Below, piece after piece: positions 4,043 to 59,926 of a stretch of 64,000 bases of DNA (positions are counted from its first letter, which is position 1; every line of letters begins with the position of its first letter). The DNA lies in the NCBI GenBank assembly GCA_964016885.1, contig OZ024742.1, forward strand, positions 152,396,001 to 152,460,000, read 5' to 3'. The notes beneath the pieces are model-generated. The model had not been told where the DNA came from and made no database searches. It saw only the letters and a list, made by a program, of their open reading frames with translations. Both the position numbers and the translations under genes were made by a program. The stretch comes from Eledone cirrhosa (taxonomy: Eukaryota).

Positions 4043-5144
<1,102 letters not shown>

Positions 5145-5183
5145 ATATATATATATATAATGTATAATAAACAATACAATATA

Positions 5184-5259
5184 ATTACCTCATGACCAGA
5201 GGTTTCCCGAATAAGACGAATACGAAAAACGTCCTCATTCGTTCGTCGGACAAGGCAAT
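5184..5259 (-). ncRNA. Hammerhead ribozyme in the 3' pLTR of PLE #1
   Basis: Reverse complement reads ttgccttgt-CCGACGA-acgaatgaggacg...cgtcttattcgg-GAAAC-ctctg-GTC-atgaggtaa. 9-bp helix I with wobbles and a GUC cleavage site. Confidence 0.85.
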
Positions 5260-6510
5260 TTAAGACATAGTGAAATAATGGAAAAGTCTCCTCAAGAAAT
5301 GCAAGAGTTTAACGGGCAAAAATATATAAATAAAAGTAATGCAAGAGATATATAAAAAGATAAGGAAATATAATTAGGGTATGTCTATATGTATGTATAT
5401 ACACTCACAAATGTACATATGTGTGTATGTACAAATGCATGTCTATGGTGAAAATGTGTGCGTAAGTACATATATGAGGGCAAGTATATTGGTGTATATG
5501 TGACTACAAATACGTATATAATATGAGTTGAAAAAGAAATTGTATGATAACATAGTTAACACGCATCCAGATACAGGTATTAAATACACATACGAGTATG
5601 AAAGCACGCGTATAAACACACATACACGCGCGCGGACACTTATATGCGGAAGATAAAGAGGGAAGGGAATGTAATAGTAAAAAGAAGTGTCATTCTCGAT
5701 ATATGTATAAAAATGTAACAATATATGAGAATGAAAACATTTTTTAAATCAAAGAGAAAGTAATCAATTAACACTAGAGAAAAGAAAACAAACATAGGTA
5801 CGCACGTACACTCACATATATATATATAAAAATATTTATACACACAAATACGTACAGACAAAAGCGCATGCATGCGTACATACATACACATGAGGCACGT
5901 ATATATATATATATCGCCACATGTATATCTAATCAGACGTACGTACGCGGTTATATATATATATACATATATACATACACACCCATACATACATATACAT
6001 ATACACACATATACATACACATACACATACATTCACGCGAATGCACACACACGTATAAATAAGTATGCAAAAACCATACATATAAAAAAACATAGATATA
6101 AAAAGACACATACACACACATATATATACGTACGCACGTACACATGCGGAGGCGTTCATATACATATACAGAACGTATACACACATAAGCACACTCACAC
6201 ACAGAGATACAGATTATAAACCAGCCGTATGAATAAATGAGTACAAATATAATATCGGCTGCGAAACAACAGACTATATCTGGAGTGGAAAACGCAAGTG
6301 ACATGTTTTTTGAGGTAGTGAAATAAAATGGGGAAGTAAAATGTGAAATGTGAAGATATTGGGTAACTGAATCGAAAAGTAGGGGGGGGGGGTTACTGGT
6401 GGATGTGAAGTAAAAATGAAAATAAAATTAAAAATAAAGTTAAAAATGAAAGTAAATCAGAAAGAGAAGTCTGTAAAGAGGATAATTTAAGGAAAGTGAA
6501 GAATAAGAGT

Positions 6511-8085
6511 TTATGGAGGATAAGTATCTGAAAGTGAGTTAAGTTTATATGAGCTGGAAAGCAAGTGTGATTTCATGTGTGGGCAACTGGTGAACATTTC
6601 TGTTTTTATATTTAGGCAGGTTTTTGGTGATTTAAGGTTCTGTAAAATCCAATATTTTTCACTTATGCAGAGTGTGCATCTTCTTGTTCCTCTTGCATAT
6701 TCTTTAGATTGGTTCAAAATTGACCAATCCAATTTATATTGGATAACTTGGTCTTTCAAATCCCATATTCTGCTAGCCAGAGCTGTTGTGAATCTTTTGT
6801 CTGGATGTCGGAAAGATGCAACATGTGAGTAATAACGCGTTTTGAATTTGTCTTGTGTCATACCCACATATCGTTCGCTGGTGGCTAGTTGGTTGTTGCT
6901 GATGGTTGTCACTTTAGCCGTACATACAATGGCTTTGGTGTGCATTTACCTTGTAATGGGCATTCACTTTTGTCTCTACAGGAGCAATTTTGATGTTCTC
7001 TGGGTGATTTCTTATTGATGATATAAGATTTAATAGGGGGACCGCAGGAGTAGCAATTTTGACACAGTTACTATTGAAGATCTTATAGTATCTATGTGTT
7101 CTAGGGAAATGTTTATCTAAGAGCTCCAGGAATTTTTTGCCTACATTAGTTTTAACAGCTATAGAGTAGGGGGTGTGAACCAGATTATTTTTCTTTTCTA
7201 TTATTATGTTTAAAAGAGTTAGTATTCTTGGGTATGTACTTAATCGGTTCTCTAAATCCGCTATTTTGAAGGGCTTTATTATAGTAGGGGGATGCCTTAT
7301 TGAAAATAGCTTCTGAGGAAGAGAGGGTGGAGATCCTACGGCTAATATTAGGGATACAGTTTTTAAAAAACTATAGGAGGATGGCAAGAGCCTCTATGTA
7401 TATATTTTAAATTTTCATTAGGTTTATGGTATGGTTTATAAGAAGCAGTAGGCAGATCTAGGTTTATATCTAGAAAATTAACATTGGAAAGGTTAGTGTC
7501 AATAGTAATTTTAAGATTAAAACTAGCGAAGGTTTTTATTAAGTCTTTCCTTAATCTATCTAAGTTATGGCCTATGGTGGTATGGGAAAGTATTAGACCA
7601 TCCTCGCGATAAAGCCCAAAAATATGGTTTATGAATTTTTCTTTAAGTGTGTGTAGGAGGAATAGCCCGACTAAATCACAAACATCAGCACTGTCAAAAG
7701 AACCCATTAAGACATCGATTGGGTTCTCTGGGTTAGATATTTTTACCCAAGTGTCATTATCAGTAAAGAGTAGAGCGTTTCTAGCATGCAAGATGGCATT
7801 CTCTTCAATATCAGAAATATTGGTAAACTTTCTAGCGAAATTTAAGGCTTTCGCTAAAAGAGTCTGAGTGATAGACGGGTAGAAATCTACAATGTCAAAT
7901 TGGGTGAATCTAGAACTATTTTTATCTTTAATATTATTAAACCAATGTACTGCGGAAGAGCTATTTATCTATTGGAGTAATTCAGACTTACTTCTAATCT
8001 GTGTGTTTATATTATTTAACATTTTTTTGCTGGCAAGACCGATATCAGTCTTAGCAGGGTTGATTAATCTACAACTAGGACGATT
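6511..8085 (-). pseudogene. Frameshifted PLE RT + GIY-YIG endonuclease
   Basis: Motifs FDIVDFYPSI, MGSFDSADVCDLVG, LYREDGL, VNFLDINLDL, CSCRDKSECPLQGKC, YVGMTQDKFKTRYYSH and CTLCISEK. Confidence 0.92.
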
Positions 8086-8483
8086 AACATATATACGTGA
8101 TATAAGTGACCGCGTGTGTGTGTGTGTTTATACGCGTGCTTTCATACTCGTATGTGTATTTAATACCTGTATCTGGATGCGTGTTAACTATATTATCATA
8201 CAATTTCTTTTTCAACTCATATTATATACGTATTTGTGGTCACATATACACAAATATACTTGCCCTCATATATGTACTTACGCACACATTTTCACCATAC
8301 ACATGCATTTGTACATACACACATATGTACATTTGTGAGTGTATATACATACATATAGACATACCCTAACTATATTTCCTTATCTTTTTATATATCTCTT
8401 GCATTACTTTTACTTATATATATTTTGCCCGTTAAACTCTTGCATTTCTTGAGGAGACTTTTCAAATATTTCACTATGTTTTA

Positions 8484-8561
8484 AATTGCCTTGTCCGACG
8501 AACAAATGAGGACGTTTTTCGTATTCGTCTTATTAGGGAAACCTCTGGTAATTAGGTAATT
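8484..8561 (+). ncRNA. Hammerhead ribozyme in the inverted 5' pLTR of PLE #1
   Basis: Same motif as 5184-5259 but with a GUA site and a few mismatches. Confidence 0.8.
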
Positions 8562-8662
8562 AAATTGTATTGTTTATTATACATTAAATTTTGCTCTGGT
8601 ACTTACATAGAGCACTCTTCACTCCTATGACTTTTTCAATTTTCAGCGGAAACTTCAACACT

Positions 8663-8699
<37 letters not shown>

Positions 8700-8714
8700 C
8701 GGGTGGAGCATATA

Positions 8715-8763
<49 letters not shown>

Positions 8764-8768
8764 TCCAC

Positions 8769-8909
8769 CCGTTTCAACAGCTAGATCTAGCTGTTGAAAC
8801 GGCCAGAGCTCGGCCGAAGCTCAGCCGTCGGGGTCCTGAACGTTTTCGTATCACTACCCTATCGTGTACTCTGGTGAGCAATATTCTAACTGGTTTTTAC
8901 TACCTCCAT

Positions 8910-8912
<3 letters not shown>
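8769..8912 (+). mobile_element. Family X fold-back HHR-half element
   Basis: Palindrome ccgtttcaacagctagatctagctgttgaaacgg, then ...ctcagccGTCggggtcc and a tail homologous to 19220-19318. Confidence 0.7.
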
Positions 8913-8947
<35 letters not shown>

Positions 8948-15248: not shown

Positions 15249-15756
15249 TGAGAAGAAAGAAGAATACTGCGTGGTTGCACATGGGTTACATATGATAAAA
15301 ATAGTCCTTCGTCAGTGATTTTCCAACCATCATTCGTATTTCATCGCATTAAGACTCAGATACCTCAGGTTGGTGCGAGCAATAACTAAAAAAAGTTATT
15401 GGGACCAGTAATTCGCGTAAAGCGAGGGGGACAAGTAAACAATATAGAAGGATAAAAGCAAACCGTAGATATGAAAATAAACAAGCAACATGCTTGTCCG
15501 GTCAGTACAAGCTGGGTGGATTTCATGAGCGAGAGAGGTACAGACCGTCCGATGTGTGTGAGATGTAAGCAAGAAGAGACCCACAACAAGCCAAACGGAA
15601 GGAAGTGAGAAGGGGAGAAACAGAGAGAGAATGAGTGGAAGTGTGAGGAAGAGGTCAGTTGAGAGAAAGTGAAACTGACAGAGGGGGCGAAAGAGGGTGA
15701 GAGAAACAGAGAGAGCGGGGAAGCAGTAAGATATATATATATATATATATATATAG

Positions 15757-15884
15757 AAATCACATGAATCAAAGTTCTTTTCAAACCATTTATTAGCTTA
15801 CAATTGTTTCGTCCAAACCGAGGTTTGGACGAAACAATTGTAAGCTAATAAATGGTTTGAACAGAACTTTGATTCATGTGATTT
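15757..15884. repeat. 63-bp-arm palindrome centred on an HHR helix II
   Basis: gtccaaacc-ga-ggtttggac-GAAACAATTGTA reads outward on both strands; one mismatch between arms. Confidence 0.9.
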
Positions 15885-16048
15885 ATATATAACTGCTCTG
15901 TAAAACAACTGATGTTATTACATTGAGCTATTTATCTTACTGGTAATAAGGTAGTAATAAATTACTGTCTTTCACTGTTTAGGGTTTAAAATATATATAT
16001 AACTATAAAAAGTTTTAGTATATACATAACCATAAATAGTATCCTTCA

Positions 16049-16628: not shown

Positions 16629-17344
16629 CAAAAGTACAGCAGATTCGAAGTTCGAATAGCAGCTAAGCCAACGAATTCCTTCAGCAGTGCAGCCAATCAC
16701 TCGACAACGTATAGAACTCAGAGTAATAACATACATTTTAATGGGCTTTGGAAATTGAAAATAGCGACCGCTAATTCAGCTGCGTGATCTGTAGCAACGA
16801 AAGAACTGACTAGTGAGAAAAAATATACACACACACACATACATAACCACACATATATGTATACATATATATACACCACAAGCGGATTTTGTTGATTTCG
16901 GATTTACAGAAACCTCACTTAGATAGTCAATAATTTCGAAGTGTCGGTCCAGGTATGTTATATATACAGATTATATAAAAAACATGCCTTATGTGTTTTC
17001 TTCATTTCACCCGCTTCGATGGAACAGATTGGTTATAAACAAAGTATTGGAGATCGATTGGCGCAAAATCAGGCGTATAGCGAACTCTAGACCTGCCAGA
17101 GCAAAGAAACAATTGTCAGCAATGTGATTAAAGCACTTATTGTATAGCGAACCATGTCAATCTTCTTTCTTGAATAATTATTACTCCAAGTGTAAACTAC
17201 ATAAAAATCACCGCGAATTCGCAGCATCACTATGGAAACGTCTTGTTGAGTCAAACTAAGTCACACGTTAATACTATCCACTACAAGAGCTACTCCAACT
17301 GGACTACATCTAAGCGAACTGCCATAACAATAACCTGTTATCTC

Positions 17345-17431: not shown

Positions 17432-19046
17432 TGAAAAACGTAAAATAAGAAAATTATAAAAATTAACTTACTTACTAAAATTTCACTCCAACTAATTAGT
17501 TTCTGAAAGGGAATAAACATGGTTTCCGAATGGAACCCATGGAGAAAGCCTTTCGTCATCAGGAAATCTATTCTCAGCTAATTTTCCAGGCGATGCGTGG
17601 ACACGGGGAACGTATACAAAAATAATTCAGTGGATGGAAAAAAGCAAGCGGGGACTAAATTCAAGACATTGAAAAATCACTGCCTACTGCGTCGGTGGCA
17701 AATTGAAAAGAATCAATCACGTGACATCGAGGTTAATCAGTGAGTAGTGGGGTGTTACAAAAGACAGTAGTCGAACTATTACTATGAACTATAGTAGCAG
17801 TTTTGGAACATCTTTGCTCAACAAAATAATTTGGAGATAATTATAAAGAATATAGTATATCTACCAACATATATATACAGATGCATACCTATGCTAGCAA
17901 ATATATAGGTTTTGTCTTAGTAACTTTGTGGTTCAATGCAAGGGGATGCAGAACAATTTTATGGATGACGTAAAATAAGAAAATTATAAAAATCAACTTA
18001 CTTACTAAAATTTCACTCCAACTAATTAGTTTCTGAAAGGGAATAAACATGGTTTTCCGAATGGAACACATAGAGAAAGCCTTTCATCATCAGGAAGTCT
18101 ATTCTCAGCTAATTTCCCAGGCGTGGCGTGGACACAGGGAACATATACAAAAATAATTCAGTGGATGGAAAAAAGCAAGCGTGGACTAAATTCCAAGACA
18201 TTGAAAAAAGCACTGCCTACTTGGTCGGTGGCAAATTCAAAAGAATCAATCACGAGACATCGAGGTTAATCAGTGAGGAGTAGGGTGTTAAGAAGACAGT
18301 AGCCGAATTATTACTATGAACTATACTAGCAGTCTGGGGAAATTTGGAAAATGTTTGTATCAGTTCCCTGTTTAGTAAGTAAGTTCTTATTTTATGTCTT
18401 TCATATAATTGTTCTGCATCCCCTTGCATTGAACCACAAAGTTACTATGACAAAACCTATATATTTGCTAACATAGGTATGCATCTGTATATATATGTTG
18501 GTAGATATACTAATTCTTAATAATTATCTCCAAATTATTTTGTTAAGCAAAAATTGGCCAAAACTGCTACTATAGTTCATAGTAATAGTTCGGCTACTGT
18601 CTTTTTAACAGCCCACTCCTCACTGATTAACCTCGATGTCACGTGATTGATTCTTTTGAATTTGCCACCGACCAAGTAGGCAGTGCTTCTTTCAATGTCT
18701 TCGAATTTAGTCCACGCTTGCTTTTTTCCATCCACTGAATTATTTTTGTATAAGGTCCCTGTGTCCACGCATCGCCTGGGAAATTAGCTGAGAATAGACT
18801 TCCTGATGACGAAAGGCTTTCTCCATGGGTTCCATTCGGAAACCATGTTTATTCCCTTTCAGAAACTAATTAGTTGGAGTGAAATTTTAGTAAGTAAGTT
18901 ATTTTTTATAATTTTCTTATTTTACGTCTTTCATATAATTGTTCTGCATCCCCTTGCATTGAACCACAAAGTTTACTAACACAAAACCTATATATTTGCT
19001 AGCATAGGTATGCATCTGTATATATATTTTGGTAGAGATACTAATT

Positions 19047-19050
<4 letters not shown>
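17432..19050. mobile_element. Family Y array: ~1.7 units on minus (17432-18345) plus ~1.3 inverted units on plus (18372-19050)
   Basis: Period of 530 bp (17441 vs 17971). HHRs at 17485-17567 (-), 18015-18098 (-) and 18798-18880 (+). Confidence 0.88.
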
Positions 19051-19118: not shown

Positions 19119-19315
19119 ATAGGAACGAGTAGGACCCCGACGGCTGAGCTCAAGCCGTTTGGACGGCTAATTCTGGACGTCCAGAATTAACCGTCGAAAC
19201 GGCTCGAGCTCAGCCGTCTGGGTCCTACTCGTTCCTATTACCCACTCTAATACCCTAAGTATTGACTACTTTCGTGCGTTATGGTCAACCTGGTTCCTTA
19301 CCACATTTCCTTCGT

Positions 19316-19318
<3 letters not shown>
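19119..19318 (+). mobile_element. Family X fold-back element (~58-bp arms plus tail)
   Basis: Hairpin centred on ctggacgtccag. Right arm reads ccgtc-GAAAC-ggct..agcc-GTC-tgggtcc. Flanked by (TA)n. Confidence 0.8.
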
Positions 19319-19680: not shown

Positions 19681-19904
19681 TACACATATACAAACGTTTA
19701 TGCACATATCTGTATATATATAACATACCTGGACCCTGACTTTGAAATTAGTGAATATCTAAGTGAGGTTTCTGTAAATCCGAAATCAACAAAATCCGCT
19801 TGTGGTGTATACAAGTTAGGTTTCTGGAAGATCGAAAAGAGGACTTACTTTCTTAACAGGCTTTCGTTCTAAACATGTTACTCCAAACATGTTACTCCAA
19901 AGGG

Positions 19905-19961
<57 letters not shown>

Positions 19962-19962
<1 letters not shown>

Positions 19963-22900
19963 CATTTCTGAATTTGTTTAGCAAGATTCTTTATCTGAAA
20001 TCGTGTGTTGAAACCGATATTGTTATACTTTGGGAGGGTCAAGTTGCCAATAAGAAACACTCGCACAAGTTGCTTTCACTTGAATTTATTATAATAAATT
20101 TATAAATTTAGGAATTTATAAATTTATAAATTTCGGGTTGGTTGTTTGGTTCCACAACCAGATAGTTGTTTATATATTGTCAAAGTTCTTTCGTCACACA
20201 TTCTGTGACCTCTTCAGTGACTGGGGATTCTTATCTTTGTTTTTGTGCCTCTCCTTTGTTCTGTCCTACGCCATTTTGTTTCTGTGTGTGTGTTGCGTGC
20301 TCAGTCTGCGCATGCGCAACATCCGGGTGTCTGTGAGTGTTTATATTCGTTTATTTATTTGTTTATTTACATGTTACCGGTTGGTTGTTTGTTCTATGTG
20401 TGTGTGTGTGTTTTCATTTTGTCCTTCATTGTAAGTTGTGATGTTGCTGTTCCACTCATATTTTCTATTTAATTTTGGTTGTAATTCTTTTACGTTTATT
20501 GCCTCTGTGATTTGTCTAAACATTGCGTCTTTTCTGTGTGTAGATTCTATTTTTATTTCTATGTTCTCTAATTTACCCTTATGTTCTATTTTAGCATGTT
20601 GGTAGAGTACAGATGATTCTTTAATATCTTGAAGCTCTCGCCAGTGTTCATTTATCCGTTCCCCTACACTACGAGCTGTCTCCCCTATGTACACTATATT
20701 TTTGTCTCTACATTGTCCTTCAGTAGATCTTATGCTATACACTACATTTCTAGTTTTACAGTTAATATGGGGGCTTAATTTAGAGGTTATACATTTCTTA
20801 TCTATACAGGGGGTTCTTTGAAAAGGGTATGTCTTGCTAATAAGTGTTTTACGGAGGTACCTGGTCTTTCTACTATCTTAATATTGAGTTTATGTTTATA
20901 TAGGGCCCTTCAAAATTTGTAAGCTAATTCACCTCTAGGGGTTGTATCGATGAACATTACACTCTGGTATTTATTACTATTATACCATGAGTTTATTCTA
21001 TTAGCCTTATTCCTAGTTCTTTCTATTCTATTCCAAAATTTGCTCCTATACAAGGGGCAGGTCCCATTTGTGTCATTATTTACCATTTTTCCCCATTTGG
21101 TTCTGGCTCCTCTATACACTCTGATTTTATCTCTCTGATTGTAACCAGAGAACTGCATACGGTGGATGAAGTGTTCTATGTGTCTCTCTAGTTCTTCGGG
21201 TTTGCACATGCGGGATACGTTTCTTATCAGCCGTACCAAATCCGCAATTAGTATGTTGATTTTGGTATGGTCCAAAACAGCCGAGTTTCGGTGGATCAGA
21301 TGTTTGGAAGTCATGGGTTTGGCATAATGGGAATGGAGGATTTGTTTGTTGTTATTAATGGTATCTAACCAGAGCTCTGTGTCTAGTACAGGTAATCGAT
21401 GGTTTGGGTGTTTTCTTGGGTAGTCTATAGTAACTCTAATACGCTGGTGGATTGAGTTAGCTATTTGCTGGATGCTTTCCATTGTGTTTTTCTCTAGTTC
21501 CTGACTGTTCTCTAGTGGGGGTGTCTTAACTACGATGTTTATATCATCAACGTAGCGGGAGTACATTATCAGGGTTAAGGGGTCTTCTAATTGTTCTTTA
21601 AGTTTAAGTTTAAGTCAACTGTCCCACCATACTATGAATAAGTTAGCTATGTCACCTGCAATGCTAACACAAATGGCTGCTCCTTCCTCTTGGGCATATG
21701 TTTTTCCATTAAATTTGAACATATGTTCCTTAAGGGTTAGTTTTATGCTGGCTCCTACCGCATGTGCAATCATTTTCTTCAGTTCATCGTTGTTTTCGGG
21801 TGTCCATGTGGCTCTGGTCCACCCGTTCCATCTATCTGTGTCGGGTTTCTTGGCCATTGAGGTAATGGTAGGTGGTCTGCCTCTTGCTGGTCTTGTAGGG
21901 CACAGGTTGCTAAGGTCATATGTCTCTAGGTAATTATTACTATAGATAAGTTTAAGTAAGAATCCCAGCTCACTGGTATCAATCCCACGGAACTCAACAT
22001 TGCTCTCACTGATCATTTCTACGCATTTCTCCACAGCAAAATCCACGTCAATACATGGATACAGGGACACAACATCCATACTACCTATTATGCAGTTTGT
22101 TAGGTCCCTAGATCGGTTATTCCGGCCGATTCTGCTGAGGAGGTCCTCCGTGCTGTCCCATACATCTGGGGACATTTCAATGATGGGGCGTATGATCAGG
22201 GAGAAGAAGTAGGACAGCCTCTAGTTACTAGCAATGTTAGCTCCACAGACTGGCCGTGTTGGTGGTCCCGTGTCAGGGTCACTGCCCGTTTTATGGTCTT
22301 TTCGAGGCCCATACAACGCCGGCACGTCATTGTTCCAGGCTTGGAAGTTGTTGGCAGTACTTTTATTGGGCTGCATTATATTCGTCCACATCACCATATG
22401 GGCATTGAGGGCTTTTTCTCTATCCTCATGCTGCTGTGGTGTTACCTCTCCTGTGTTAGTGATGTGGGGTTGCATTGCCTGGATGTAGTTTGGTAGGCTG
22501 TCAACCGACATTCTGCCAGACTTGTCTGTTGGAAAGCATGCTATCTCTCCATCACGCGAGCGCTGCATGAGCTTACGCAAGCCATTTGCAGATTTTTCTC
22601 CCAGTGGTTGGGCTTCCATTCTATTATGCTTCTTGCTATACTGTTCTATAACATTTCTAAGTTCGGATCTAGCTATACTAAATTGTGCGTCTGTTTGTTC
22701 ATCGACCTGCGACGGCAATTTCGTACGTTTGTTAATTGGTAAAGTCGTGGCGTGGACTCGTCGCAGGTCGAAGGACTTATCGGAGGGATTATAAAAAGTA
22801 GAGTTCCAGGCTGCTGCTTTATGTGTACTAGTGCTATTGTTATTGTTAGTTGTGTTGTTTCTATTTATATTTCCACCAACATCCTCATGGTTGTTTCTAT

Positions 22901-23650
22901 GTCTCACATAATTACTCATGTCTCTTTCCACTGGCTCATTGTTATTATCTACTCTATTGTGTATGTATGTGTGTTCGTCTTGGTTATTTTCTTTGTCCAT
23001 AGTCTCCCTTCTCCTTTTAATCCTATTACTTTCCCTTATTTCTGTGATTTCTGTGCTACTGTCATTACTTGTTTTCTGTGTCTGTGTGTTTGTTAAGATT
23101 GTGGTGGTGGTGAGAGGCATTGAATGTGTGTGTGTTGTTGTTGTTGTTGATGTGTGCTGTTGTTGATGTGTGCTGTTGTTGATGTGTGTTGTTGTTATTG
23201 TCTCCGTGATGTTATTATTGTTGTGTGTGTTGTTATTGTTGTTTGTGTCTGCGTGTCTGTTGTTGTTGTTTCTGAGTATTATATTATTGTTGGTGTGTGT
23301 GTTGTTGTTATTGTTGTTTGTGTCTGTGTGTCTGTTGTTGTTGGGATGTGTTGTATATGTGTGTGCGTATGTTGTTACTTTTGTTTTTGTTTTTGTTTTT
23401 GAGGCTCCAACGTAATTTTGTAAATGAATTTTTCTATTTCTGACAGACAACTAATCATATTTACCTTCTTGAATGTCGCAAATTTCGGTGGTAGAAGTAA
23501 TACAGATAATTCAACAGGGTCTATTGCCGTGTTGCCGTATATATTTGTGTTGTTGTTGTTGTTGAACTCATCTGTTAATGAGGTGTCGGCCATATTTATA
23601 CCGTCAATTTAGTCGGGATATCTATTGGTATTCTCTACAGTATCCTGATT
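19962..23650 (-). mobile_element. PLE #2, near full length, frameshifted
   Basis: Motifs PTDKSG, PPTRPVCGA, SMDVVSLYP, YSRYVDD, LPVLDTEL and VYIGETARSVGERINEH. Asn/Thr microsatellite expansion in the N-terminal part. Confidence 0.92.
20179..20221 (-). ncRNA. Minimal HHR in the 3' end of PLE #2
   Basis: Reverse complement reads gtca-CTGAAGA-g-gtcaca-gaatg-tgtgac-GAAA-gaac-TT-tgac. Confidence 0.75.
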
Positions 23651-23699
23651 TAGTTTTATCTGCTTAAGCCACTTTAGTTTTTTGTTAAAGTGTTTATCA

Positions 23700-24185
23700 C
23701 ATTCTTGAGCAATGTACCTATATATTTGCTAGCATCGATATGCATTTGTATGTATATATATGTTACTAGATATAAATTCTTTATTATTATCTTCAAAATA
23801 TTTGTCGAGCAATACTGGCCATGACTGCTGCTACGGTAGCAGGCTAGCCGCTGTCTTATTAACAACCCACTTTCCACCGATTGACCTCGATTTCACGTGT
23901 TCGATACTTTTTGAATTTGCCACAGACACAGAGGCAGTGATTTTCTCAATGGCTAGGAAGTAAGTCCATGCTTTGCTATTTCCTATTCACTGATTTATTT
24001 TTAATAAGCTTCCAGTTTCCTCGCTTTGCCTGGAACTTATATGAGAATTGACTTTCCTGATGACGGGATGTTTCTCTACACCTTCTTCGGAAGATGTATC
24101 TACTCCATTCCAGAAACTAATTAGTTGGAAGTGATATTTTAGTAAGTAAGTTAATTTTATAATTTTCTTATCTTACGTCTCTTAC
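23700..24185 (+). mobile_element. Divergent family Y monomer with HHR at 24051-24132
   Basis: actttc-CTGATGA-c-gggatg...cattcc-a-GAAACTAATTAGTT-ggaagt. Compensatory changes relative to the other copies. Confidence 0.85.
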
Positions 24186-24281: not shown

Positions 24282-24990
24282 AATATGAATATATATATGT
24301 ATATATATATATGTATATATATATATATGTATACATATATTTATATACACACATACATTATACATACATATATATATATATGAATATATATATATGTATA
24401 TATATAAGTATATATATATATGTATATATATATATATGTGTATATATATATATACACACACGCATACACACACACATCTATATTTATACACGCACACATG
24501 TTTTTACAACCTACCACCTTTCACACCCTTTGTTTTCCAGCTTCTACAGCTCACTATCTTTCACACACACACGCACTCACACATATACACACACAGTTAC
24601 ACACACATGTATACCCATACACTTACACACACACATCTATATTTATACACGCACACATGTTTTACAACCTACCACCTTTCACACCCTTTGATTTCCAGCT
24701 TCTACAGCCCACTATCTTTCACACACACACACACACATATACACACTTACATTTATACACACACAGTTACACACACATATATATTTATACACACATATTT
24801 TACGGCTTTCACACGCTAGCGCACCCTCTTGATTTAACCCATTTGGTCAGTAGCTTTTGCCACAGCTTATCACGCGCACGCGCATTCTTTCCCTCGTTTA
24901 AATTTTAAATAATTCTCTCCCCATAACGGCATTCCTGTCTTAACGACATCACAACTTTCTCCGCTTGGCCTGTTCCCCCCCTTTTGGAAC

Positions 24991-25028
24991 TTCCCCCGTT
25001 GATGGGCGTGAGCCCGAAATATTGGGAT
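24991..25028 (+). ncRNA. Variant HHR in PLE #3 5' pLTR (same motif at 28420-28457)
   Basis: tccc-CCGTTGA-t-gggc-gtga-gccc-GAAA-TA-TT-ggga. GNRA-capped helix II, non-canonical 5' core. Confidence 0.6.
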
Positions 25029-25192
25029 TAAATCTCCACTACGGTAACCCTTCTACCTTTGTTTTGTTTTCACCTTTGTCTCTCTCAATTTTCACTTTCA
25101 CCTGTTTCTCCTATCTATCATTCACTTCCTACCTCGAGATTTCCCTCTGCATTGTTGTGGCTTTCTTAACTACGTATTTTACACATTTCACA

Positions 25193-27839
25193 ATGCTTCA
25201 AGCAAACTTTAACACCCTCTTATCATTACACCTGAGCCAGGACTTGTTTGCACCCATAAGGGACCTATTCAGACTATCGGAGAATCGTGCCAAACTCGGT
25301 TGCCAAATTACCTTCTTAAAACGCTGCCTAAAGAACAACATCATTCCAACCACCATCAGGAATATACATCTACCCGAATGTTTACGATCACCATCCTTCG
25401 AAAACACCATCCGCCACATTCAACGCACGTTTATCAAGAAAATACTACGACACAACCACCACCAACTGCGACTCCATATACAAACGCTTTCCGAGCACAT
25501 AGATCGTATAGCTCCAACCCTCACCCCTGACCACCAGGTGCAGGAAATACGCAAAGCTATAGATCAGTGTTACCACACCAGAGTCAAATATGATAAACAG
25601 CGCCTTATACGGAAATACGAATGGACTGTAAACAAATACTACAATGACAACATCCGCTCCCACAGACTGACCGATTACAACCACACCAGGGGCAACAGCT
25701 ATACAACACCCTCCGCTACACCCCCCAACATCGATCTACCTACCAACGATGCTTCACACCTCGTTACCGACCTAACCGGTACCCTCACCAACGACGAACT
25801 CGAACTTCTGCGCCTCGGACCCAAGTTCATCATTACACAGCGTCTCGATGATAGACTGAAACTCGACATCGAAACCAACTTCTGTCGGACAGCATATCAA
25901 CTGAAATGGCTAACCGCCATCCAAAACAACACCGAGATCGATTACAACCCCACAATCCACCCCACACTCCCCACGTATCACCTCGACAACCCACTCCACC
26001 CCCCACCCACCAACCACGAACTTGATACTAAACTACTCAGGTTGAAACATTCTATCTCTAACATCCTTTCCCAACACACACACACACAATAAACGCAACC
26101 TCACCAATGCACAATTTAATACTCTCACCAACCTAAGATCCAGGAACCTTGTGTACCTTCCCTCTGACAAGGGGAAAGAATTCTGTGTCATCTCGAGAGA
26201 GACCTACAACAACTTAGCTCTCCAACATCTTAATGACCACAGCCTCTACTCGAAAGTCACAGGGACCTCCTCGACTCTAATCGAGGAAGGCATTAACACC
26301 ATATGGACTAACATCTGTGTCCAACGAAAACTGCCAAAGAAGGTAAAAAAACCAAAAAAAATCCAACATAATGACTCGAAACAGCAAACTACCCACCTTC
26401 TACCACCTGGTTAAAACACATAAACAAGGACCCGATTTGAAAATCAGGCCCATTGTCTCTAGCGTGGAGGGCCCACTCTACAAAATATCGTGGCTGCTCT
26501 CCACACTACTGAAACCCATTCCACACACACTACCAGCCCACGTCTGCAGCTCAAAGGAGGTCTTGGAGCGACTACACCATCTGGAGCCCAACACCAGAAA
26601 GGACAACGGTTATGCCTTCAGTCTTGATGTGGTCGCCCTTTATACCTCCGTACCAGCATCCCCAGCTGTCGACCTGTTGACCGAACGAGTCCGAGCATCT
26701 AACTTACACTGCTTCGGACTCACACACACGGACATCCACCAACTCCTCTCCTTCGTTGTGGATAATGCACTCTTCAATTTCCTCGGCCACACGTATAAAC
26801 AAATCTCTGGGCTACCTATGGGCTCTAGTCTGTCCGGCATACTTGCGATCTCGTACATGGACCACCTGGAACGCAAGGCACTCAATACCTGCCAACCCAA
26901 CGCCGTCGCCTTCTACTCCAGATACGTTGATGACATCCTGATACTTCTTCCCGTGAGATGGCGAATGAAATTCACCAAATCTTCAACGATACTGACCATC
27001 ACGTCGATTTCACCATCGAACACCCAGGAGAAGACGGGTCACTCGCCCTCCTCGACTTCCGTATCAACATCTCAGAAGAAGGAGACATAAACACCACCTT
27101 CTACCGCAAAGCAGCGTGCAAGGACTTATTTGTGCATTACAACTCAGCCCTCCCCAACAACGCTAAGAGAGGCTATGTCCTAAATGAACTGACACGGATC
27201 ACTAACAGATGCAGCGACCCGATGGGTGGTCTCACCCATACCACGCAATTCCGTAATCTACTCAGATCTAATGGTTATCCCAAGCGACTGATTATCGGAA
27301 TTAGAGACCCCAGACCCAATAGACACCCACCCACTAGAAACTTAAATAAAAGCAGGTGCTTCTTTAAAATCCCCCACCTGAGTGAATATACCACGAACGC
27401 CATCCGCAGGGCCATACGGACGGAGGGACTTGACATACATTTGGCCCACACAGGACCTTCGCTGCGAAGATGCCTCTCCAACAAACCCGACCAGTCAGAT
27501 GGGACGTGTTCCCTCAGCAACTGCCCGATACGGGGGGCAGATTGCCTACGCACCTATGTCGTATATAAGATTCAATGCGATAAATGTAACAAGTTTTACA
27601 TAGGTAGCACCATCCGACCCCTACATGTTCGTATCAAGGAACATATCAACACCAACGCATCTTCCTTCCGTAAAAACATCCTTAAATGCGGAAACCCACA
27701 GCGTAGACCCTTGGTCACAGTCCTAGCGACTGAACGCAGCATCGGATCCTTAAGGATAAAGGAAGCACTTGTTATTAAGAACCTCAGACCCCCACTTAAC
27801 AACCGGGCTGAGAGAAATGAGCTGACATGGCTAACTTAA
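25193..27839 (+). pseudogene. PLE #3 ORF (RT + GIY-YIG) with about three frameshifts
   Basis: MLQANF start; motifs PSDKG, LVKTHK..IRPIVS, SLDVVALYTSVP, GLPMGSSLS, YSRYVDD, VVYKIQCDKCNKFYIGST and EALVIKNLRPPLN. Confidence 0.95.
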
Positions 27840-28603
27840 CCATAGTGACCATTCACAGCCTACGGCCTGCTATCTTCACACACACGCACGTATATGCATA
27901 CCCATACGCATACACACACACATCTATATTTATACACCCACACATGTTTTTACAACCTACCACCTTTCACACCCTTTGATTTCCAGCTTCTACAGCCCAC
28001 TATCTTTCACACACACACGCACTCACACATATACACACACAGTTACACACACATGTATACCCATACGCTTACACACACACATGTTTTACAACCTACCACC
28101 TTTCACACCCTTTGATTTCCAGCTTCTACAGCCCACTATCTTTCACACACACACACACTCACACATATACACACTTACATTTATACACACACAGTTACAC
28201 ACACATATATATTTACACACACATATTTTACGGCTTTCACACGCTAGCGCACCCTCTTGATTTAACCCATTTGGTCAGTAGCTTTTGCCACATCTTTTCA
28301 CGCGCACGCGCATTCTTTCCCTCGTTTAAATTTTAAATAATTCTCTCCCCATAACGGCATTCCTGTCTTAACGACATCACAACTTTCTCCGCTTGGCCTG
28401 TTCCCCCCCTTTTGGAACTTTCCCCCGTTGATGGGCGTGAGCCCGAAATATTGGGATTAAATCTCCACTACGGTAACCCTTCTACCTTTGTTTTGTTTTC
28501 ATCTTTGTCTCTCTCAATTTTCACTTTCACCTGTTTCTCCTATCTATCATTCACTTCCTACCTCGAGATTTCCCTCTGCATTGTTGTGGCTTTCTTAACT
28601 ACG

Positions 28604-28638
<35 letters not shown>

Positions 28639-28896: not shown

Positions 28897-29085
28897 TAAC
28901 GAAGGAGTTGTGGTAAGGAACCAGATGGACCATAAGGCACCAGAGTACTCAATACTTAGGGTAGTAGAGTGGGTAACTGGTAAATGTATGACCCCGATGG
29001 CAGAGCTCAAGCCGTTTCGACGGCTATTTCTGAGTCCAGAAATAGCCGTCGAAACGGCTTCAGCTTTGCCTTCGGGGTCATACAT
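28897..29085 (-). mobile_element. Family X fold-back element (~50-bp arms plus tail)
   Basis: Hairpin atgtatgacccc...gccgtttcgacggctatttctg / cagaaatagccgtcgaaacggc...ggggtcatacat. Tail homologous to 19237-19318. Confidence 0.8.
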
Positions 29086-32138: not shown

Positions 32139-34665
32139 GAGGAACTGAAACAATAACCATAGAGGAACTGAAGCAACGCATTGTAGCAAAGAGTGCAAAA
32201 ATCAGGCGATACGAGAACAGAGTCAGTCAGTATACACAGAACCGCATGTTCGACAACAACCAGAAGATGCTGTTTGGACAGCTTGAGGGGAAAGAAAGAG
32301 GCAACGACTTGATCCCTGATGCGGAACAAACTAAAACATTCTGGAGAGGAATATGGGAGCAGGATGTTAAACATAATGACCAGGCAGTGTGGATTGAGAC
32401 AGTACAAAAGGAGATTAGTGAACAGGCACACCAAAAAACTGATTAGAGTATCACAGTTGAAACTCTTAAGGGGCAGGCCAAAAAACTAACCAACTGGAAA
32501 TCACCAGGCCCAGATGGTGTGCAGGGGTATTGGATTAAAATATAACATCCCTCCACCCGAAACTGACAACCATGTTCAATGTCTGCTTGATGTCAGGTGA
32601 GGTACCAGAGTGGTTGACAAAAGGTACCACAGTTCTGGTAATGAAAGACCGAATCAAGAGTAATGATGTTACCAACTATAGACCTATCACATGTCTGTCC
32701 GTAATGTGGAAACTGCTGAGAAGCATTATGTCTGAGGAAATCTACCATCACCTCCACACAAACAACTTGTTACCGGACGAACAGAAAGGATGCCGAAAGA
32801 AGTCACGTGGTACAAAGAACCAGTTACTTATTGATAAGATGGTAATGAGGAATTGCAAAGAGGAGACACACTGGTCTTGCCATGGGATGGATAGACTACA
32901 AAAAGGCATTCGACATGTTACCTCATTCTTGGATAACCAAAAGCCTGGAGATCTTCAAGGTGGCAGATAACATCAGACATTTGTTGGGCAAAAGTATGAA
33001 GTCCTGGGAAACAGAGTTAACATCAACTGGAGAATCCTTGGGAAGCGTGAAGATCAAGAGAGGTATCTTCCGGGGAGATAGTCTGTCCTCTCTGTTGTTT
33101 GTCCTTGCCCTGATGCCCCTGACCAGTGTACTGCGAAAAGTGAGAGCAGGATATAGGTTGGGAAAGGGAGGGCTTACCATCAATCACCTCCTCTTCACGG
33201 ACGATCTTAAGCTATTCGGGAAGAGTGAGAAGGAGTTGGATGTGCTTGTTGACACTGTCCGTATTTTCACCAATGATATATGTATGCAATTTGGTATTAG
33301 TAAGTGTGGAGTCATTGAGATGAAGAGGGGTAAGTTGAGCAGAAGTAACGGAATCCAGGTACCAACGGGTGAGATGATAAAGGAAATTGACTCTGAAGAA
33401 GGATACAAGTATTTGGGCGTTCTGGAGGCTGATGACATCAAGAACAAAACAATGAAGGAATTGATAAGAACTGAATACATTCGGAGAGTAAGGAGCGTAT
33501 TAAAGTCACATCTGAACAGTAGGAATGCCATAAGTGCAGTAAATTCCCGAGCTGTGTCTATTATGAGTTACAGTGCGGGAATTCTGAGATGGAATGTTGC
33601 TGAACAGATAGAAATGGATAGGATGACTAGTAAGCTATTGACTATCTACAACATGTTCCACAAGAGGAGTGATGTCGATAGACTCTACTTAAGGAGATCT
33701 GATGGTGGAAGAGGTTTTATCAGCATAGAGGACTGTGTTCAGATGGAGAAAAACAACCTACACAAATACGTGACTGATAGTAAGGAGCCAATGCTCAGAA
33801 CTGTGCTGAAGGAGAGGACAATAGGCCAGGGGATGTCCAAGGAGGAAATAACATCAAGGAGAAAGAGCAGCTTTCAGGAAAAATCCCTTCATATTACCTT
33901 CTTTGAGAAAACTGAATTTAGAGTTCCACAGACATGGAACTGGTTGAAAAGAGGAGACCTTAAAAAGGCTACAGAAGGAATGTTAATGGCTGCGCAGGAG
34001 CAGGCCATCAAAACGAAGTTGTTGAAACACCATATCTACAAGGAGGAGGCTAGCCCACTGTGCAGGATCTGTGGAGAGAGAGAGGAGATTGTGGCTCACA
34101 TTGTATCCGAGTGTAAACACCTAGCCCAGACTCACTATAAGGGCTGGAGACATGATGTGATGGGCAGGGTGATCCACTGGCACCTATGCAAAGTAAACAA
34201 TTTACCACATTCTGAGAAGTGGTATGAGCATAAGCCAGAGTCGGTGATAGAAAACGATGAGGTGAAGGTGCTGTGGGATTTTAGGATACAGACGGACAAG
34301 AAACTGGAATACAATAGACCTGACCTGGTGGTTTTGGACAAGGGAAAAAGATCAAGAGAAGAGAGGGAGAAAATTAACCGTTACCAGGACTTAAAGTGGG
34401 AGGTAAAAAGGATTTGGAACTGCCATGAGGTCAAAGTTGCGCCTATTGTCATAGGCGCATTAGGTACTATCACAAAGAGTTTCAAGGGATGGTTAAAAAA
34501 AATTGCTCCTGCCCCGCTTTTTAGAACACTTTAAAATGCATGCTTGCTGGGAACAGCAAGAACCCTCCGATACGTCCTGAATATCTGAGGCTGCAGGTAG
34601 TGGCTTGATATTCATTTCAACAAACTTTCCAGTTAAATAACACCAATGACTGAGACTCAAAGAAC
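32139..34665 (+). mobile_element. R4/Dong-like non-LTR retrotransposon, family A, 5'-truncated, in (TAA)n
   Basis: KSPGPDG, NYRPITCL, WIDYKKAFD, HLLFTDDLKLF, CRICGEREE..HIVSEC zinc knuckle, RHD and REL RPDLVV. TAA repeats on both sides. Confidence 0.93.
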
Positions 34666-34696
<31 letters not shown>

Positions 34697-34698
<2 letters not shown>

Positions 34699-35450
34699 TT
34701 ACCAAGCCAATATAATAAAAAATGGATGCAACCCAATATGCCGTGTATGTAAAAAACAACCAGAGAGCATTGATCATATAATTTCAATGTGCAGTCCTAT
34801 AGCTCCAACCGAATATCTAAACAGGCATGACAGAGCTGCACAATACTTACATTGGATAATGTGTAAGCATTTTGACCTGCCCCATGAAAAAAATTGGTGG
34901 GAGTATCAACCACCTCCCATACTTGAAAAATATCACATCTCAATCTTGTGGAACTTTAGCATGCAAACAGACCGAAATATAGATGCAAATAGACCTGATA
35001 TAATACTGAAGGACTTTAAAAAGAGGGTATGCCTGCTAATTAATGTGTCCGTTCCAATAGACAAGAATGTATCTATAAAAACATTTGAAAAATTGAGCAA
35101 GTATAAGGACCTGGAGATAGAAATTGGAAAAATGTGGAAATTGAGAACTAAAACAATACCAGTGGTTGTAGGCGCTCTAAGAATGATACCTAAGGGGTCT
35201 AATTATTACTTATCGCAAATCCCAGGAAACCCGCGTATAGGAGAAATACAAAACATTATACTAAAGGGAACTGCCCATATACTAAGGAAGATTCTGTCAA
35301 TATAAGTACATCACAAGTCTAAACACCTAAAGATGCATGTGTGTGTATGTATGTTCTTTCTTGATCATGGCGGACCTTGTTGTCTCTTGAGGTCACTGGT
35401 TGTCACTTGGTGATAACTCGTATGAACATAAAGCAAGATAAATGCAACTG
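34697..35450 (+). mobile_element. R4/Dong-like family B, 3' fragment
   Basis: CRVCKKQPESIDHIISMC, RHD, RPDII and EKLSKYKDL; same family as 56015-59795. Confidence 0.92.
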
Positions 35451-35474
35451 TAATAATAATAATAATAATAATAA

Positions 35475-39173: not shown

Positions 39174-41653
39174 TGTTCGACAACAACCCAGAACCGCATG
39201 TTCGACAACAACCAGAAGATGCTATTTGGACAGCTTGAGGGGAAAGAAAGAGGCAACAACTTGATCCATGGGGCGGAACAAACTAAAACATTCTGGAGAG
39301 GAATATGGGAGCAGGATGTTAGACATAATGACCAGGCAGTGTGGATTGAGACAGTACAGAAGGAGATCGGTGAACAGGCACACCAACAAACTGATTTGAG
39401 TATCACAGTTGAAACTCTTAAGGGGCAGGCCAAAAAACTAACCAACTGGAAATCACCAGGCCCAGATGGTGTGCAGGGGTATTGGATTAAAAATATAACA
39501 TCCCTCCACCCGAAACTGACAGCCATGTTCAATGACTGCTTGATGTCAGGTGAGGTACCAGAGTGGTTGACAAAAGGTACCACAGTTCTGATAATGAAAG
39601 ACCGAATCAAGGGTAATGATGTTACCAACTATAGACCTATCACATCTGTCCGTAATGTGGAAACTGTTGACGAGCATTGTGTCTGAGGAAATCTACCATC
39701 ACCACCACACAAACAACTTGTTACCGAACGAACAGAAAGGATGCCGAAAGAAGTCACGTGGTACAAAGGACCAGTTACTTATTGATAAGATAGTAATGGG
39801 GAATTGCAAGAGGAGACACACTGATCTTGCCATGGGATGGATAGACTACTGAAAGGCATTTGACATGGTGCCTCATTCTTGGATCACCAAAAGCCTGGAG
39901 ATCTTCAAGGTGGCAGATAACATCAGACGGTTGTTGGGCAAAAGTATGAGGTCCTGGGAAACAGAGTTGACATCAACTGGAGAATCCTTGGGAAGCGTGA
40001 AGATCAAGAGAGGTATCTTCCAGGGAGATAGCCTGTCCCCTCTGTTGTTTGTCCTTGCCCTGATGCCCCTGACAAGTGTACTGCGAAAAGTGAGAGCAGG
40101 ATACAGGTTGGGAAAGGGAGAGCTTACCATCAATCACCTCCTCTTCATGGACGATCTTAAGCTATTCGGGAAGAGTGAGAAGGAGTTGGATGTGCTTGTT
40201 GACACTGTCCGTATTTTCACCAATGATATATGTATGCAATTTGGTATTAGTAAGTGTGGAGTCATTGAGATGAAGAGGGGTAAGTTGAGCAGAAGTAACG
40301 GGATCCAGGTACCAACGGGTGAGATGATAAAGGAAATTGACTCTGAAGAAGGATACAAGTATTTGGGCGTTCTGGAGGCTGATGACATCAAGAACAAAAC
40401 AATGAAGGAATTGATAAGAACTGAATACATTCGGAGAGTAAGGAGCGTATTAAAGTCACATCTGAACAGCAGAAATGCCATAAGCGCAGTAAATTCCCGA
40501 GCTGTGTCTATTATTAGGTGCAGTGCGGGAATTCTGAGATGGAATGTTGCTGAACAAAAAGAAATGGATAGGATGACTAGTAAGCTATTGACTATCTACA
40601 ACATGTTCCACAAGAGGAGTGATGTCGATAGACTCTACTTAAGGAGATCTGAGGGTGGAAGAGGTCTTATCAGCATAGAGGACTGTGTTCAGATGTACAA
40701 AAACAACCTACACAAATACGTGACTGATAGTAAGGAGCCAATGCTCAGAACTGTAATGAAGGATGGACAATAGGCCAGGGGATGTCCAAGGAGGAAATAA
40801 CATCAAGGAGAAAGAGCAGCCTTCAGGAAAAATCCCTTCATAGTACCTTCTTTGAGAAAACTGAACTTAGAGATCCACAGACATGGAGCTGGTTGAGAAG
40901 AGGAGACCTAAAAAAGCTACAGAAGGAATGTTAATGTCTGCGCAGGAGAAGGCCCTCAAAACGAAGTGGTTGAAACACCATATTTACAAGGAGGAGGCTA
41001 GCCCACTGTGCAGGATCTGTGGAGAGAGGAGACTGTGGCTTACATTGTATCCGAGTGTAAACACCTAGCCCAGACCCACTATAAGGGCTGGAGACATGAT
41101 GTGATGGGTAGGGTGATCCACTGGCACCTGTGCAAAGTAAACAATTTACCACATTCTGAGAAATGGTATGAACATAAGCCAGAGGCGGTGATAGAGAACG
41201 ATCAGGTGAAGGTGCTGTGGGATTATAGGATACAGACGGACAAGAAACTGGAAAACAATAGACCTGACCTGGTGGTTGTGGACAAAGAAAAAAGATCGTG
41301 CCTGATTGTGGATGTGGCCTGCCCATTCGACACGAGAGTGCAAGAGAAGGAGAGGGAGAAAATTAACCGATACCATGACTTAAAGTGGGAGGTAAAAAGG
41401 ATTTGGAACTGCCATGAAGTCAAAGTGATCCCGATTGTCATAGGCGCACTGGGGACTATCTCCAAAAGTTTCCAGGGATGGTTAAAGAAAATCGGCCCTT
41501 TCACGCTTTTTGGAACGCTTCAAAAGGCATTCTTGCTGGGAACAGCAAGAACCCTCCGATACGTCCTGAATATCTGAGGCTGCAGGTGGTGGCTTGATAT
41601 TCATTCCAACGGACTTTCCAGTTAACTATCATCAATGACTGAGACTCAAGGAG
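39174..41653 (+). mobile_element. R4/Dong-like family A copy 2, 5'-truncated, with stops and frameshifts
   Basis: GIFQGDSLSP, HLLFMDDLK, RPDLVV and IVDVACPFD; same 3'UTR as 34590-34665. Confidence 0.93.
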
Positions 41654-41680
41654 TAATAACAATAATAGTAATAATAATAA

Positions 41681-41827
41681 TTCTTTATACTTTTGGCACA
41701 AGGCCAGCAATTGCCCAGTGTATTACTGGTACTTTATGTTATCGACCCCATAAGGATGAAAGGCAAAGTTAACCTCGGCTGGATTTGAACTCAGAATGGC
41801 AAGGGCCGTAACTCTATGCGTCAAAGC

Positions 41828-41829
<2 letters not shown>
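41681..41829 (-). mobile_element. SINE (Nin/Deu-type) inserted in (TAA)n
   Basis: Closely matches the reverse complement of 49621-49775. Confidence 0.88.
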
Positions 41830-41865
<36 letters not shown>

Positions 41866-41871
41866 AATAAT

Positions 41872-42488
41872 TAGATGAACAAAAATTGGTGGGGCAGGCT
41901 CGGGTAATAATAACTAATGGGTGGATAAGCGAGTGGAACTGCAGGAACTGAGCAGAGAGATTAGGTTGGAAATGGAGAGTGGAGTATGCCAGGCAAACGA
42001 GCCAGTGGGAAATGAAGGTGAAGAGGTTGAGAGAACGGAGGAACCATCCGAAGCAGACAATGATGTTCTGAATGCTGAAATAAATAATACCTGGAACAGA
42101 GTTACGGCCACTGAGGAGATGAATGCTGTCGGGCTAGGACAAGATTTGGTTGATATCCTAAAATTAGTGGTAGATGAAATGAACAATGATAGTGGGAAAC
42201 CTATGAACCTAAGATTTGTAGACAGGAAAAAGTTAAAACAAACAACAGCTAAGGTAAACAAAGTCATCCCATACCTTGAGACGAGGATCCTTTACCAGTG
42301 CAACAATATCCTCAAAGCAACAGCAAATGCGGTGAGGAAATTAATTGGCATAAAAGCGAGAGGAAACAACAAACAAGAAAGATCAGAATCTTGGTGAAAG
42401 AAACGACTGAATGGTCAAATCAGGGAAATGAAAAATGACATTGGAAAGCTTGAAATCTACCATCACCTGAGACTGAGACTCAAAGAAC
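41872..42488 (+). mobile_element. Internally deleted family A derivative (5' ORF part + 15 nt of RT region + 3' terminus)
   Basis: 41872-42453 matches the reverse complement of 63163-63740, then aatctaccatcacct, then gactgagactcaaagaac and (AAT)n. Confidence 0.85.
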
Positions 42489-46835: not shown

Positions 46836-46886
<51 letters not shown>

Positions 46887-47127
46887 AAAAAGTGGAGAAT
46901 AACATGGTCAACAGTACAAAAAAGGGAACTGTTTCCGATGATCTAGTATAGTTAACATCGTATTTAAAATTGAGTGGCACTGTTTTTAGTGTTCAGCAAT
47001 TTTTAGACAACTCTATCAGTGAAACAATTGTTAGACTGCAAATTAAACCCCCTTTTTTGTACAATTAACCACATTATTTTCCACTTTTTCAATTTTATTA
47101 CTCCAAGATAAATTTACATAGGAATAC
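46887..47127 (+). ncRNA. Family Z copy B: HHR inside an inverted repeat, plus tail
   Basis: gttt-CCGATGA (46935)...GAAACAATTGTT (47021)-agac. Arms aaaagtggagaataacatggtc / accacattattttccactttt; tail cataggaatac. Confidence 0.7.
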
Positions 47128-47167
47128 AAGTGAAATCATAAACTCGTCATCCAAAGGGGAAGCAACA

Positions 47168-49868: not shown

Positions 49869-49921
<53 letters not shown>

Positions 49922-49923
49922 TA

Positions 49924-50650: not shown

Positions 50651-50656
<6 letters not shown>
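49924..50656. mobile_element. Family Y: minus copy 49924-50425 plus inverted plus copy 50426-50656
   Basis: HHRs at 50088-50159 (-, helix I actcc/ggagt) and 50536-50602 (+, 5' strand of helix I deleted). Confidence 0.88.
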
Positions 50657-52129: not shown

Positions 52130-52330
52130 ATATACATTGTGAATTACCAGTTATACTAGTAAGACCATATTCTGATAATTACTCGATACGTGGGAAAGTA
52201 GAGTGTATGTATAATGAAAACTTAGTACCTGACGGCTGAGTTCTCGCCGTTGAAACAGCGAGAGAATAACTGAATTATGTGTTCGGCTTTTTCTTTTCTA
52301 CCTATTTCCATATACTGTTTCATCATGATC
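52130..52330 (-). ncRNA. Non-palindromic family X copy retaining both HHR core halves (decayed)
   Basis: Reverse complement reads ATGATGA-aacag...ctgtt-TCAAC-ggc-gagaactca-gcc-GTC-agg, then a family X-like tail (cactcta..gtatcgagta..tatggtc). Confidence 0.6.
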
Positions 52331-59795: not shown

Positions 59796-59926
59796 TGTTA
59801 TTATCATGAGTGGTTCCTTAATGTGAGCATTGCGTGGCTTAAGAATGAAATTATTAATAATTGTCTCCACTCCAGGCACAGGCCAGCAATCACCCAGTGC
59901 ATTACTTATTATTATTATTATTATTA

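Follow-up and report, generated by a model that had tools for sequence, protein, structure and literature searches.

Why do so many insertions in this stretch of DNA consist of two segments that diverge from a common centre and point their tails outward? The window analysed here is the whole stretch of 64,000 nucleotides from Eledone cirrhosa; it is rich in (TA)n, and most of these tracts flank remnants of Penelope-like elements (PLEs) or short hammerhead-bearing repeats. An earlier note on this DNA had proposed, as a general rule, that many (TA)n insertions have an RNA 3' end at both boundaries, and that both cut strands can prime, perhaps on two RNAs dimerised through the palindromic helix III of a hammerhead.

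PLE #1 and the head-to-head composites

The body of PLE #1, delimited by motifs and ORFs, occupies 5160–8087 on the minus strand and comprises a 5'-truncated Neptune-like PLE with its 3' UTR and pLTR. Reading from about 8087, the minus strand holds an RT (from the NPAK motif onward), a Zn-finger-like Cys-rich motif (CSC..C..C) and, downstream of it, GIY-YIG-type motifs; the order of RT and C-terminal GIY-YIG, the latter identified by motifs, is present. The ORF is spread over three frames and is interrupted by several frameshifts and, within the RT piece, by a single in-frame stop. Pfam gave no match for the three broken pieces, and about 510 amino acids of the protein align at 36% with the 741-aa ORF of a related locus (L004). 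The element is presumably Neptune-like, a label that we base on the Zn-finger motif and on N-terminal motifs. An extra Zn-finger-like motif is common to Neptune and Nematis in the available text of PMC8557442.

An inverted, 5'-truncated pLTR arm lies head-to-head with the body (8100–8584, plus strand). The two arms (5160–5616 and 8584–8127) are 96.7% alike, with 17 substitutions in 484 aligned columns and 3 gaps, and their 3.5% divergence is, as a rough estimate, compatible with the decay of the ORF. The left end, start site 1, abuts (TA)7, and the right end, which would be site 2, abuts (TA)16. A tail of 81 nt (8585–8665, plus strand), identified as element leader by comparison with related loci, is carried by the inverted arm only, such that PLE #1 has both the inverted copy and the one-ended tail of a pLTR. 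A hammerhead half (GAAAC-helix-GTA) is visible in the pLTR, and motif scans of PLE #1 found no intact CUGAnGA core. Beside the left end lies family Z (4151–5144, minus strand), a 605-nt tandem repeat (98%) that is not inverted and has two clear leader hairpins per unit.

The tail-out layout is borne out not only in PLE #1 but in both family Y composites, in three copies of family X and in a palindrome near 15757: in each the segments stand head-to-head, the centre holds no long (TA)n, and 9–30+ nt of (TA)n lie outside both ends. In the first Y composite, E1, site 1 marks the end of the left arm (17433–18345, minus strand; 1.7 units of 530 nt) and site 2 that of the right arm (18346–19049, plus strand); in the second, E3 (49912–50654), the left arm ends at site 2 and the right arm at site 1, and an AAGAA microhomology can be read at the centre. 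Sites 1 and 2 fall at about positions 20 and 136 of the Y unit. The X copies lie at 8762–8913 (very short left arm, tailed right arm), at 19122–19316 (a palindrome with short left and tailed right arms) and at 28899–29083 (a palindrome with a tailed left arm, hairpin at 28941–28976, and a short right arm). The palindrome at 15756–15990, whose right end was placed from the next TA run, is centred on hammerhead stem II and has a right-arm tail with a hairpin near 15895.

Two family W pairs have the same layout, at 962–1249 (right end in (ATCT)n) and at 46883–49526, as does a mixed pair at 19961–24185, in which PLE #2 (minus strand), of a different PLE group, lies head-to-head with a Y copy (23716–24185) with no TA tract at the junction (23715/23716). 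Every inverted composite in the window, 10 of 10, is head-to-head with outward tails. The first W pair is also joined on its left side, at 961/962, head-to-tail to the 5' end of a Y copy (384–961), and the right arm of the second runs at about 47150 head-to-tail into a Neptune-like PLE remnant. Neither join contains a TA tract, and these mixed-family joins may be template jumps or insertions at an older boundary. At the centre of E1 (18346–18383), two short plus-strand Y fragments (matches of 18 and 15 nt) precede the full unit in a manner resembling template skipping.

As a rule for (TA)n insertions in general, the layout does not hold, given that the 10 tail-out composites stand against 12 inserts, mostly (TA)n-bounded, that have no inverted arm (13 such rows were examined, and the Y copy at 384–961 is counted with its W composite). 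One counter-example is a near-complete PLE with direct pLTRs, set in (TA)n at 24455–28606 (plus strand). The non-coding families were oriented by means of their hammerhead GAAA-helix III motif, a few of the non-inverted inserts by a single motif each. Inverted 5' pLTRs are typical of PLEs. Head-to-head is the most frequent arrangement in the available text of PMC3846280. The tail-out layout is real and common, and it is already known for Penelope-like elements.

Relatives of the PLE #1 RT were gathered as 79 metagenome loci from the best 80 of 347, on contigs that are short and mostly break at repeats. An inverted match occurs in 16 of these 79, of which six read as head-to-head (L016, L042, L061, L064, L018 and, by position, L005); the rest are local hairpins, separate elements or ambiguous, and no tail-to-tail join without intervening target DNA is found among the 16. 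Four sequencing runs compared with one Y unit list two opposite-strand joints, with no orientation given. A count of tail-out against head-out inversions cannot separate one template from two, because the primed end always lies against target DNA; by this reasoning a head-out join is not expected from target priming, and two tails that face each other would be separated by target DNA and be taken for independent insertions (W at 17345 and Y at 17433; L046). The pair in L046 consists of two full-length related PLEs (about 66% alike) lying tail-to-tail across (TA)12 at 2933–2956. The only tail-in pair of one sequence is formed by 8698–8716, a 14-nt inverted duplicate of the end of a short X arm (8762–8773) that faces it across (TA)22 and looks like snap-back synthesis on (TA)n.

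Arm ends and leader hairpins

The two arms of a composite never stop at the same element position, and the proposal that both boundaries are RNA 3' ends fails on this point: the right arm of PLE #1 runs 81 nt past its left end, all of it element sequence. Each of the nine same-family composites (PLE #1, two Y, three X, the 15757 element and two W) has a single tailed arm, which extends about 60–125 nt further than its untailed partner (modulo the unit). Such mixed ends would arise by independent 50:50 choice in each arm with a probability of 0.002 for the nine, or 0.008 for the seven best supported. Loci L018 and L042 likewise have a tailed inverted arm head-to-head with the body, with the far ends off the contigs. 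A rule by which the untailed arm always reaches further 5' was considered and fails for E3.

What lies beyond the shorter end in PLE #1 is a leader hairpin (8587–8619, plus strand; a GCTC stem with a 2-nt bulge), which lies 8 nt past the equivalent of the left end. Among the 79 related loci (best 80 of 347), a GCTC...GAGCAC hairpin precedes 44 of 49 recognisable ORF starts as against 1 of 132 control ORF windows, and 29 ORF starts have two hairpins spaced 59–74 nt apart (typically about 65); these loci include related families, and the hairpin counts are not independent. The alignment from the same loci holds 61 of 62 hairpins, L027 being omitted as an apparent duplicate of L021. Four motif pairs of the stem were fixed by the search pattern and covariation was judged on three inner pairs, in which two-sided changes occur in 21, 22 and 20 of the 61 hairpins; the score, which relatedness can inflate, is reached by 0 of 500 shuffles and exceeds all slid controls.

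In these same loci, still from the best 80 of 347, TAT occurs in the 10 nt before 48 of 61 hairpins as against 59 of 336 other leader 10-mers, and both (TA)n ends could therefore pair at the TA-rich start sites. Of 19 mappable 3' ends, 12 fall between −3 and +6 nt from the first or second hairpin and seven lie away from any matched hairpin.

A hairpin model built from the metagenome loci alone finds as its best match in the window the 81 nt of PLE #1 (32 bits, E 5.5e-6), as its second-best the X tail at 28.9 kb (E 0.0017), and scores Y site 2 at E 1.5. With a simpler matrix the 15757 tail has p 0.0013, and the sequences of the Y and W hairpins fall short of significance (p 0.13–0.39), on a scale where a non-Neptune control reaches p 0.026 and values near 0.03 are without weight. 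PLE #1, Y site 1 and the 15757 tail fold into the same bulged hairpin and X into one that resembles it; at Y site 2 the hairpin differs from the minimum-energy structure. The case for a hairpin past the short end is strong in PLE #1, X and the 15757 element and weak in Y and W. Both sites are also used by single copies, and Y site 2 with (TA)n recurs in 16 contigs of run X1. We infer that the template extends beyond each boundary, and that the boundaries are RT start sites able to pair with a (TA)n end. The layout itself being known, what is new here is a covarying pair of leader hairpins that would fix the ends of the insertions.

Source of the arms and the role of hammerheads

Arms copied from two RNAs might be expected to carry variants of two source copies, and the check was run on Y, X, the 15757 element and PLE #1. 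None has two-source arms: variants peculiar to an insertion are common to both arms, and each arm resembles its partner in the insertion more than it resembles other copies. The E3 arms are 4.2% apart as against 11.5–15.9% to E1 and E0 over the same region, and 26 of 242 columns are common to the E3 arms only and absent from E1 and E0. Between the arms of X there are 4 differences in 57 positions and 5 in 53, compared with 22 in 136 between insertions, and the 15757 arms have 1 in 63.

In E1 four alleles unite the inner units A (left) and C (right) and set them apart from B, the outer unit on the left; at each of the four, B agrees with copy E0. The E1 allele at 18210 is found in 4 of 239 and 8 of 288 reads of run X8 (about 2–3%, from RAD-seq with uneven copy sampling). 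Unit A has 14 private differences, of which about 10 are alleles that most reads do not carry and that look like later decay. A start of both arms in one unit needs a match of B with C, and these do not match. The E1 arms come from one heterogeneous tandem source, neither from different copies nor from a single circle.

Judged by sequence, arms of the same source would fit one RNA or two transcripts of one locus alike. There is a second reading to weigh, in which the halves of a protein dimer each hold their own RNA, usually from the same locus, and each prime one cut end, the asymmetry of the ends coming from nicking order or dimer geometry. We regard this as unlikely, if still a serious contender. 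Arms that are not nested (PLE #1, E1 and W) would suit it, as would the mixed pair of PLE #2 and Y with no TA tract between them and the finding, in the available text of bioRxiv 10.1101/2024.12.14.628481, that L1 break ends are extended on different mRNAs. However, none of the same-family composites has arms of different subfamilies, though several Y subfamilies exist, and mixed ends in 9 of 9 would need an extra assumption. The PLE #2 and Y pair is the sole different-source pair in the window, and a later insertion of Y is as likely as a two-RNA event; since PLE #2 belongs to another PLE group, the later insertion is also a simple account.

Pairing of two RNAs through palindromic helix III, with both (TA)n ends starting copies at the RNA 3' termini, now appears very improbable. 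A palindromic helix III is real enough in Y, W, V and the 15757 element: GAAAC followed by a palindrome matches 14 times in the window against a shuffled mean of 0.42 and a maximum of 4 (50 shuffles), and hammerheads of this kind are thought to be dimeric in the available text of PMC4209133. An Rfam search of the window returned 137 matches at E up to 1, none of them to a hammerhead; they are simple-repeat look-alikes. Helix III dimerisation is known to activate hammerhead cleavage (PMC4209133, available text), yet in the arms of Y, X and the 15757 element the sequence continues unbroken across the cleavage site. In addition, a palindromic helix III is missing from PLE #1, which is inverted, and present in V, which is not; the boundaries are internal sites with more element sequence beyond them, no same-family insertion has different-source arms, and hammerhead mutants left insertion in vitro unchanged (PMC11167929, available text). 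Family V itself (1–387) consists of two direct 121-nt minimal hammerhead copies, 99% alike and each between (TA)n tracts, and is probably one insertion with a local duplication.

Family Y has the features of a non-LTR retrozyme, namely non-coding tandem units that each contain a type I hammerhead. Tandem joints of 529–532 nt occur in runs X1, X4, X8 and X9 (recorded as DNA or of unstated kind); the family is very abundant in organism A and is present also in organism B, with tandem joints (runs X1 and X4), and the divergent Y type beside PLE #2 forms its own subfamily in both. The Y motif has no match in viral contigs, and the run search listed no RNA run. Family Y would seem, from its sequence, to be retrozyme-type and PLE-related. 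Animal non-LTR retrozymes are like it in being non-coding tandem units with a type I hammerhead, related to PLEs and of very high copy number, in the available text of PMC7229834 and bioRxiv 10.64898/2026.07.22.740005; they are unlike it in unit length, which is 530 nt in Y. The Y units within one insertion differ at segregating alleles, which fits a linear multimer better than one circle. The searched text of PMC7229834 has no match for 'inverted'.

Priming from both cut strands

The part of the earlier proposal that stands is that both cut strands prime, which the unequal arms of PLE #1 and the TA-rich start sites support; the two RNAs paired by helix III are not supported. We lean, with slightly better than even confidence, towards L1-like twin priming, with a single read-through RNA as template and two successive start sites set by hairpins. 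Both cut DNA ends would start reverse transcription on this RNA, each at a TA-rich site just 5' of a conserved leader hairpin, and the RT-endonuclease, probably dimeric, would bind the hairpins. Along the RNA, hairpins 1 and 2 would alternate, and two successive ones would give one tailed and one untailed arm. Joining of the cDNAs would follow, either at a microhomology, such as AAGAA in E3, or by way of hammerhead stem II, whose self-complementarity would yield the small X and 15757 palindromes, and the joined cDNAs would copy each other. A (TA)n target may help because both cut ends present identical 3' sequence. As in twin priming, the primed ends face target DNA and the cDNAs are head-to-head in all 10 inverted composites. 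Any target-site duplication flanking a whole unit would be masked by the (TA)n.

Several observations count against this reading. Twin priming in PLE #1 would need a gap of about 900 nt or strand displacement of about 480 nt, and a single RNA cannot have given rise to the PLE #2 and Y pair and the two head-to-tail mixed joins, unless these were successive insertions. Pairing with (TA)n is also at odds with the initiation of a PLE protein without target homology (PMC11167929, available text).

It is improbable, in our estimation, that the composites instead arose by single priming, fold-back of the cDNA at stem II and self-copying (self-priming, as proposed in the available text of PMC3846280), with the centre later trimmed by deletion. 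At their centres X and the 15757 element have stem II palindromes that are perfect or nearly so, the arms are of the same source, and the short duplication at 8698–8716 is snap-back-like, all of which would be consistent with such an origin. In PLE #1, though, one arm extends further 5' (into the ORF) and the other further 3' (into the tail) and simple copy-back is therefore excluded; the long arm without a tail and the tailed arm without an ORF would need a large later deletion. The short arms, moreover, stop where solo copies and relatives stop, which points to true start sites. Fold-back may nonetheless make small palindromes.

Twin priming on one RNA can be put in a more specific form, which we advance only tentatively. 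The paired, covarying hairpins may bring the two subunits of an RT-endonuclease dimer together on one RNA, each subunit priming one strand just 5' of its hairpin, such that every inverted insertion would have one tailed and one untailed arm and the cDNAs would prime each other's second strand. If true, this hairpin-pair rule would account at once for the tail and inverted pLTR of PLEs, for the palindromes at the junctions and for synthesis of the second strand.

Much of this has parallels in known systems, the published accounts being cited from their available text. PLEs are described with junction palindromes and a tail on one inverted pLTR, for which self-priming was proposed (PMC3846280), and (TA)n is a target of Naiad (PMC8557442). 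Known endonuclease-positive PLE units resemble the insertions in the window in head-to-head arms, junction palindromes, a tail at one end, tandem units and microsatellite targets (PMC3846280, PMC8557442, PMC2377424), whereas tails are about 60–115 nt in the window and 30–40 in known units, and ends placed just before one of two covarying leader hairpins were not found described in those texts. Purified PLE protein (Poseidon PAc) nicks and extends both strands, and it is similar in having two internal start sites that define the tail and AT-rich targets; hammerhead cleavage is dispensable and a dimer is predicted for it, as we infer one here (PMC11167929). PAc starts in an AC-rich stem-loop inside the ORF and without homology (PMC11167929), whereas the starts in the window precede the ORF and are found on the 5' side of a GCTC/GAGC hairpin, where the TA-rich sequence can pair with (TA)n.

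For L1, twin priming that leaves an internal deletion or duplication has been published (bioRxiv 10.1101/2024.08.27.596794, available text). The insertions in the window differ from it in having no poly(A) and in a second site that looks hairpin-fixed rather than set by chance pairing; unlike L1, their template is a tandem repeat, and both arms consequently hold the same sequence. Neither the leader hairpin nor twin priming applied to PLEs was found in the literature searched, although 2005–2006 PLE reviews and supplements lay outside its scope and either may be in print.

The origin of PLE inverted repeats and tails has been set as a task for an in vitro system (PMC8557442, available text). 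The hairpin pair is a short, mutable cis element predicted to govern start site, tail length and inversion rate. It is also a marker linking non-coding retrozymes to the PLE group that mobilises them, and it helps to set retrozyme boundaries in microsatellite-rich genomes.

Other repeats accompany these insertions. An 89-nt inverted repeat (16870–16958 and 19723–19811, 93% alike), for which no identity was found, brackets W, Y and X insertions, and a short interspersed repeat occurs at 29806, 41674 and 49604. A decayed Neptune-like PLE remnant lies at 51200–52100 on the minus strand, with an X-like motif near 52190–52260. Several RT-encoding non-LTR retroelement copies, 90–95% alike and with (AAT)n ends, are present in both orientations at 32158–35451, 39186–42453 and 56014–63742.
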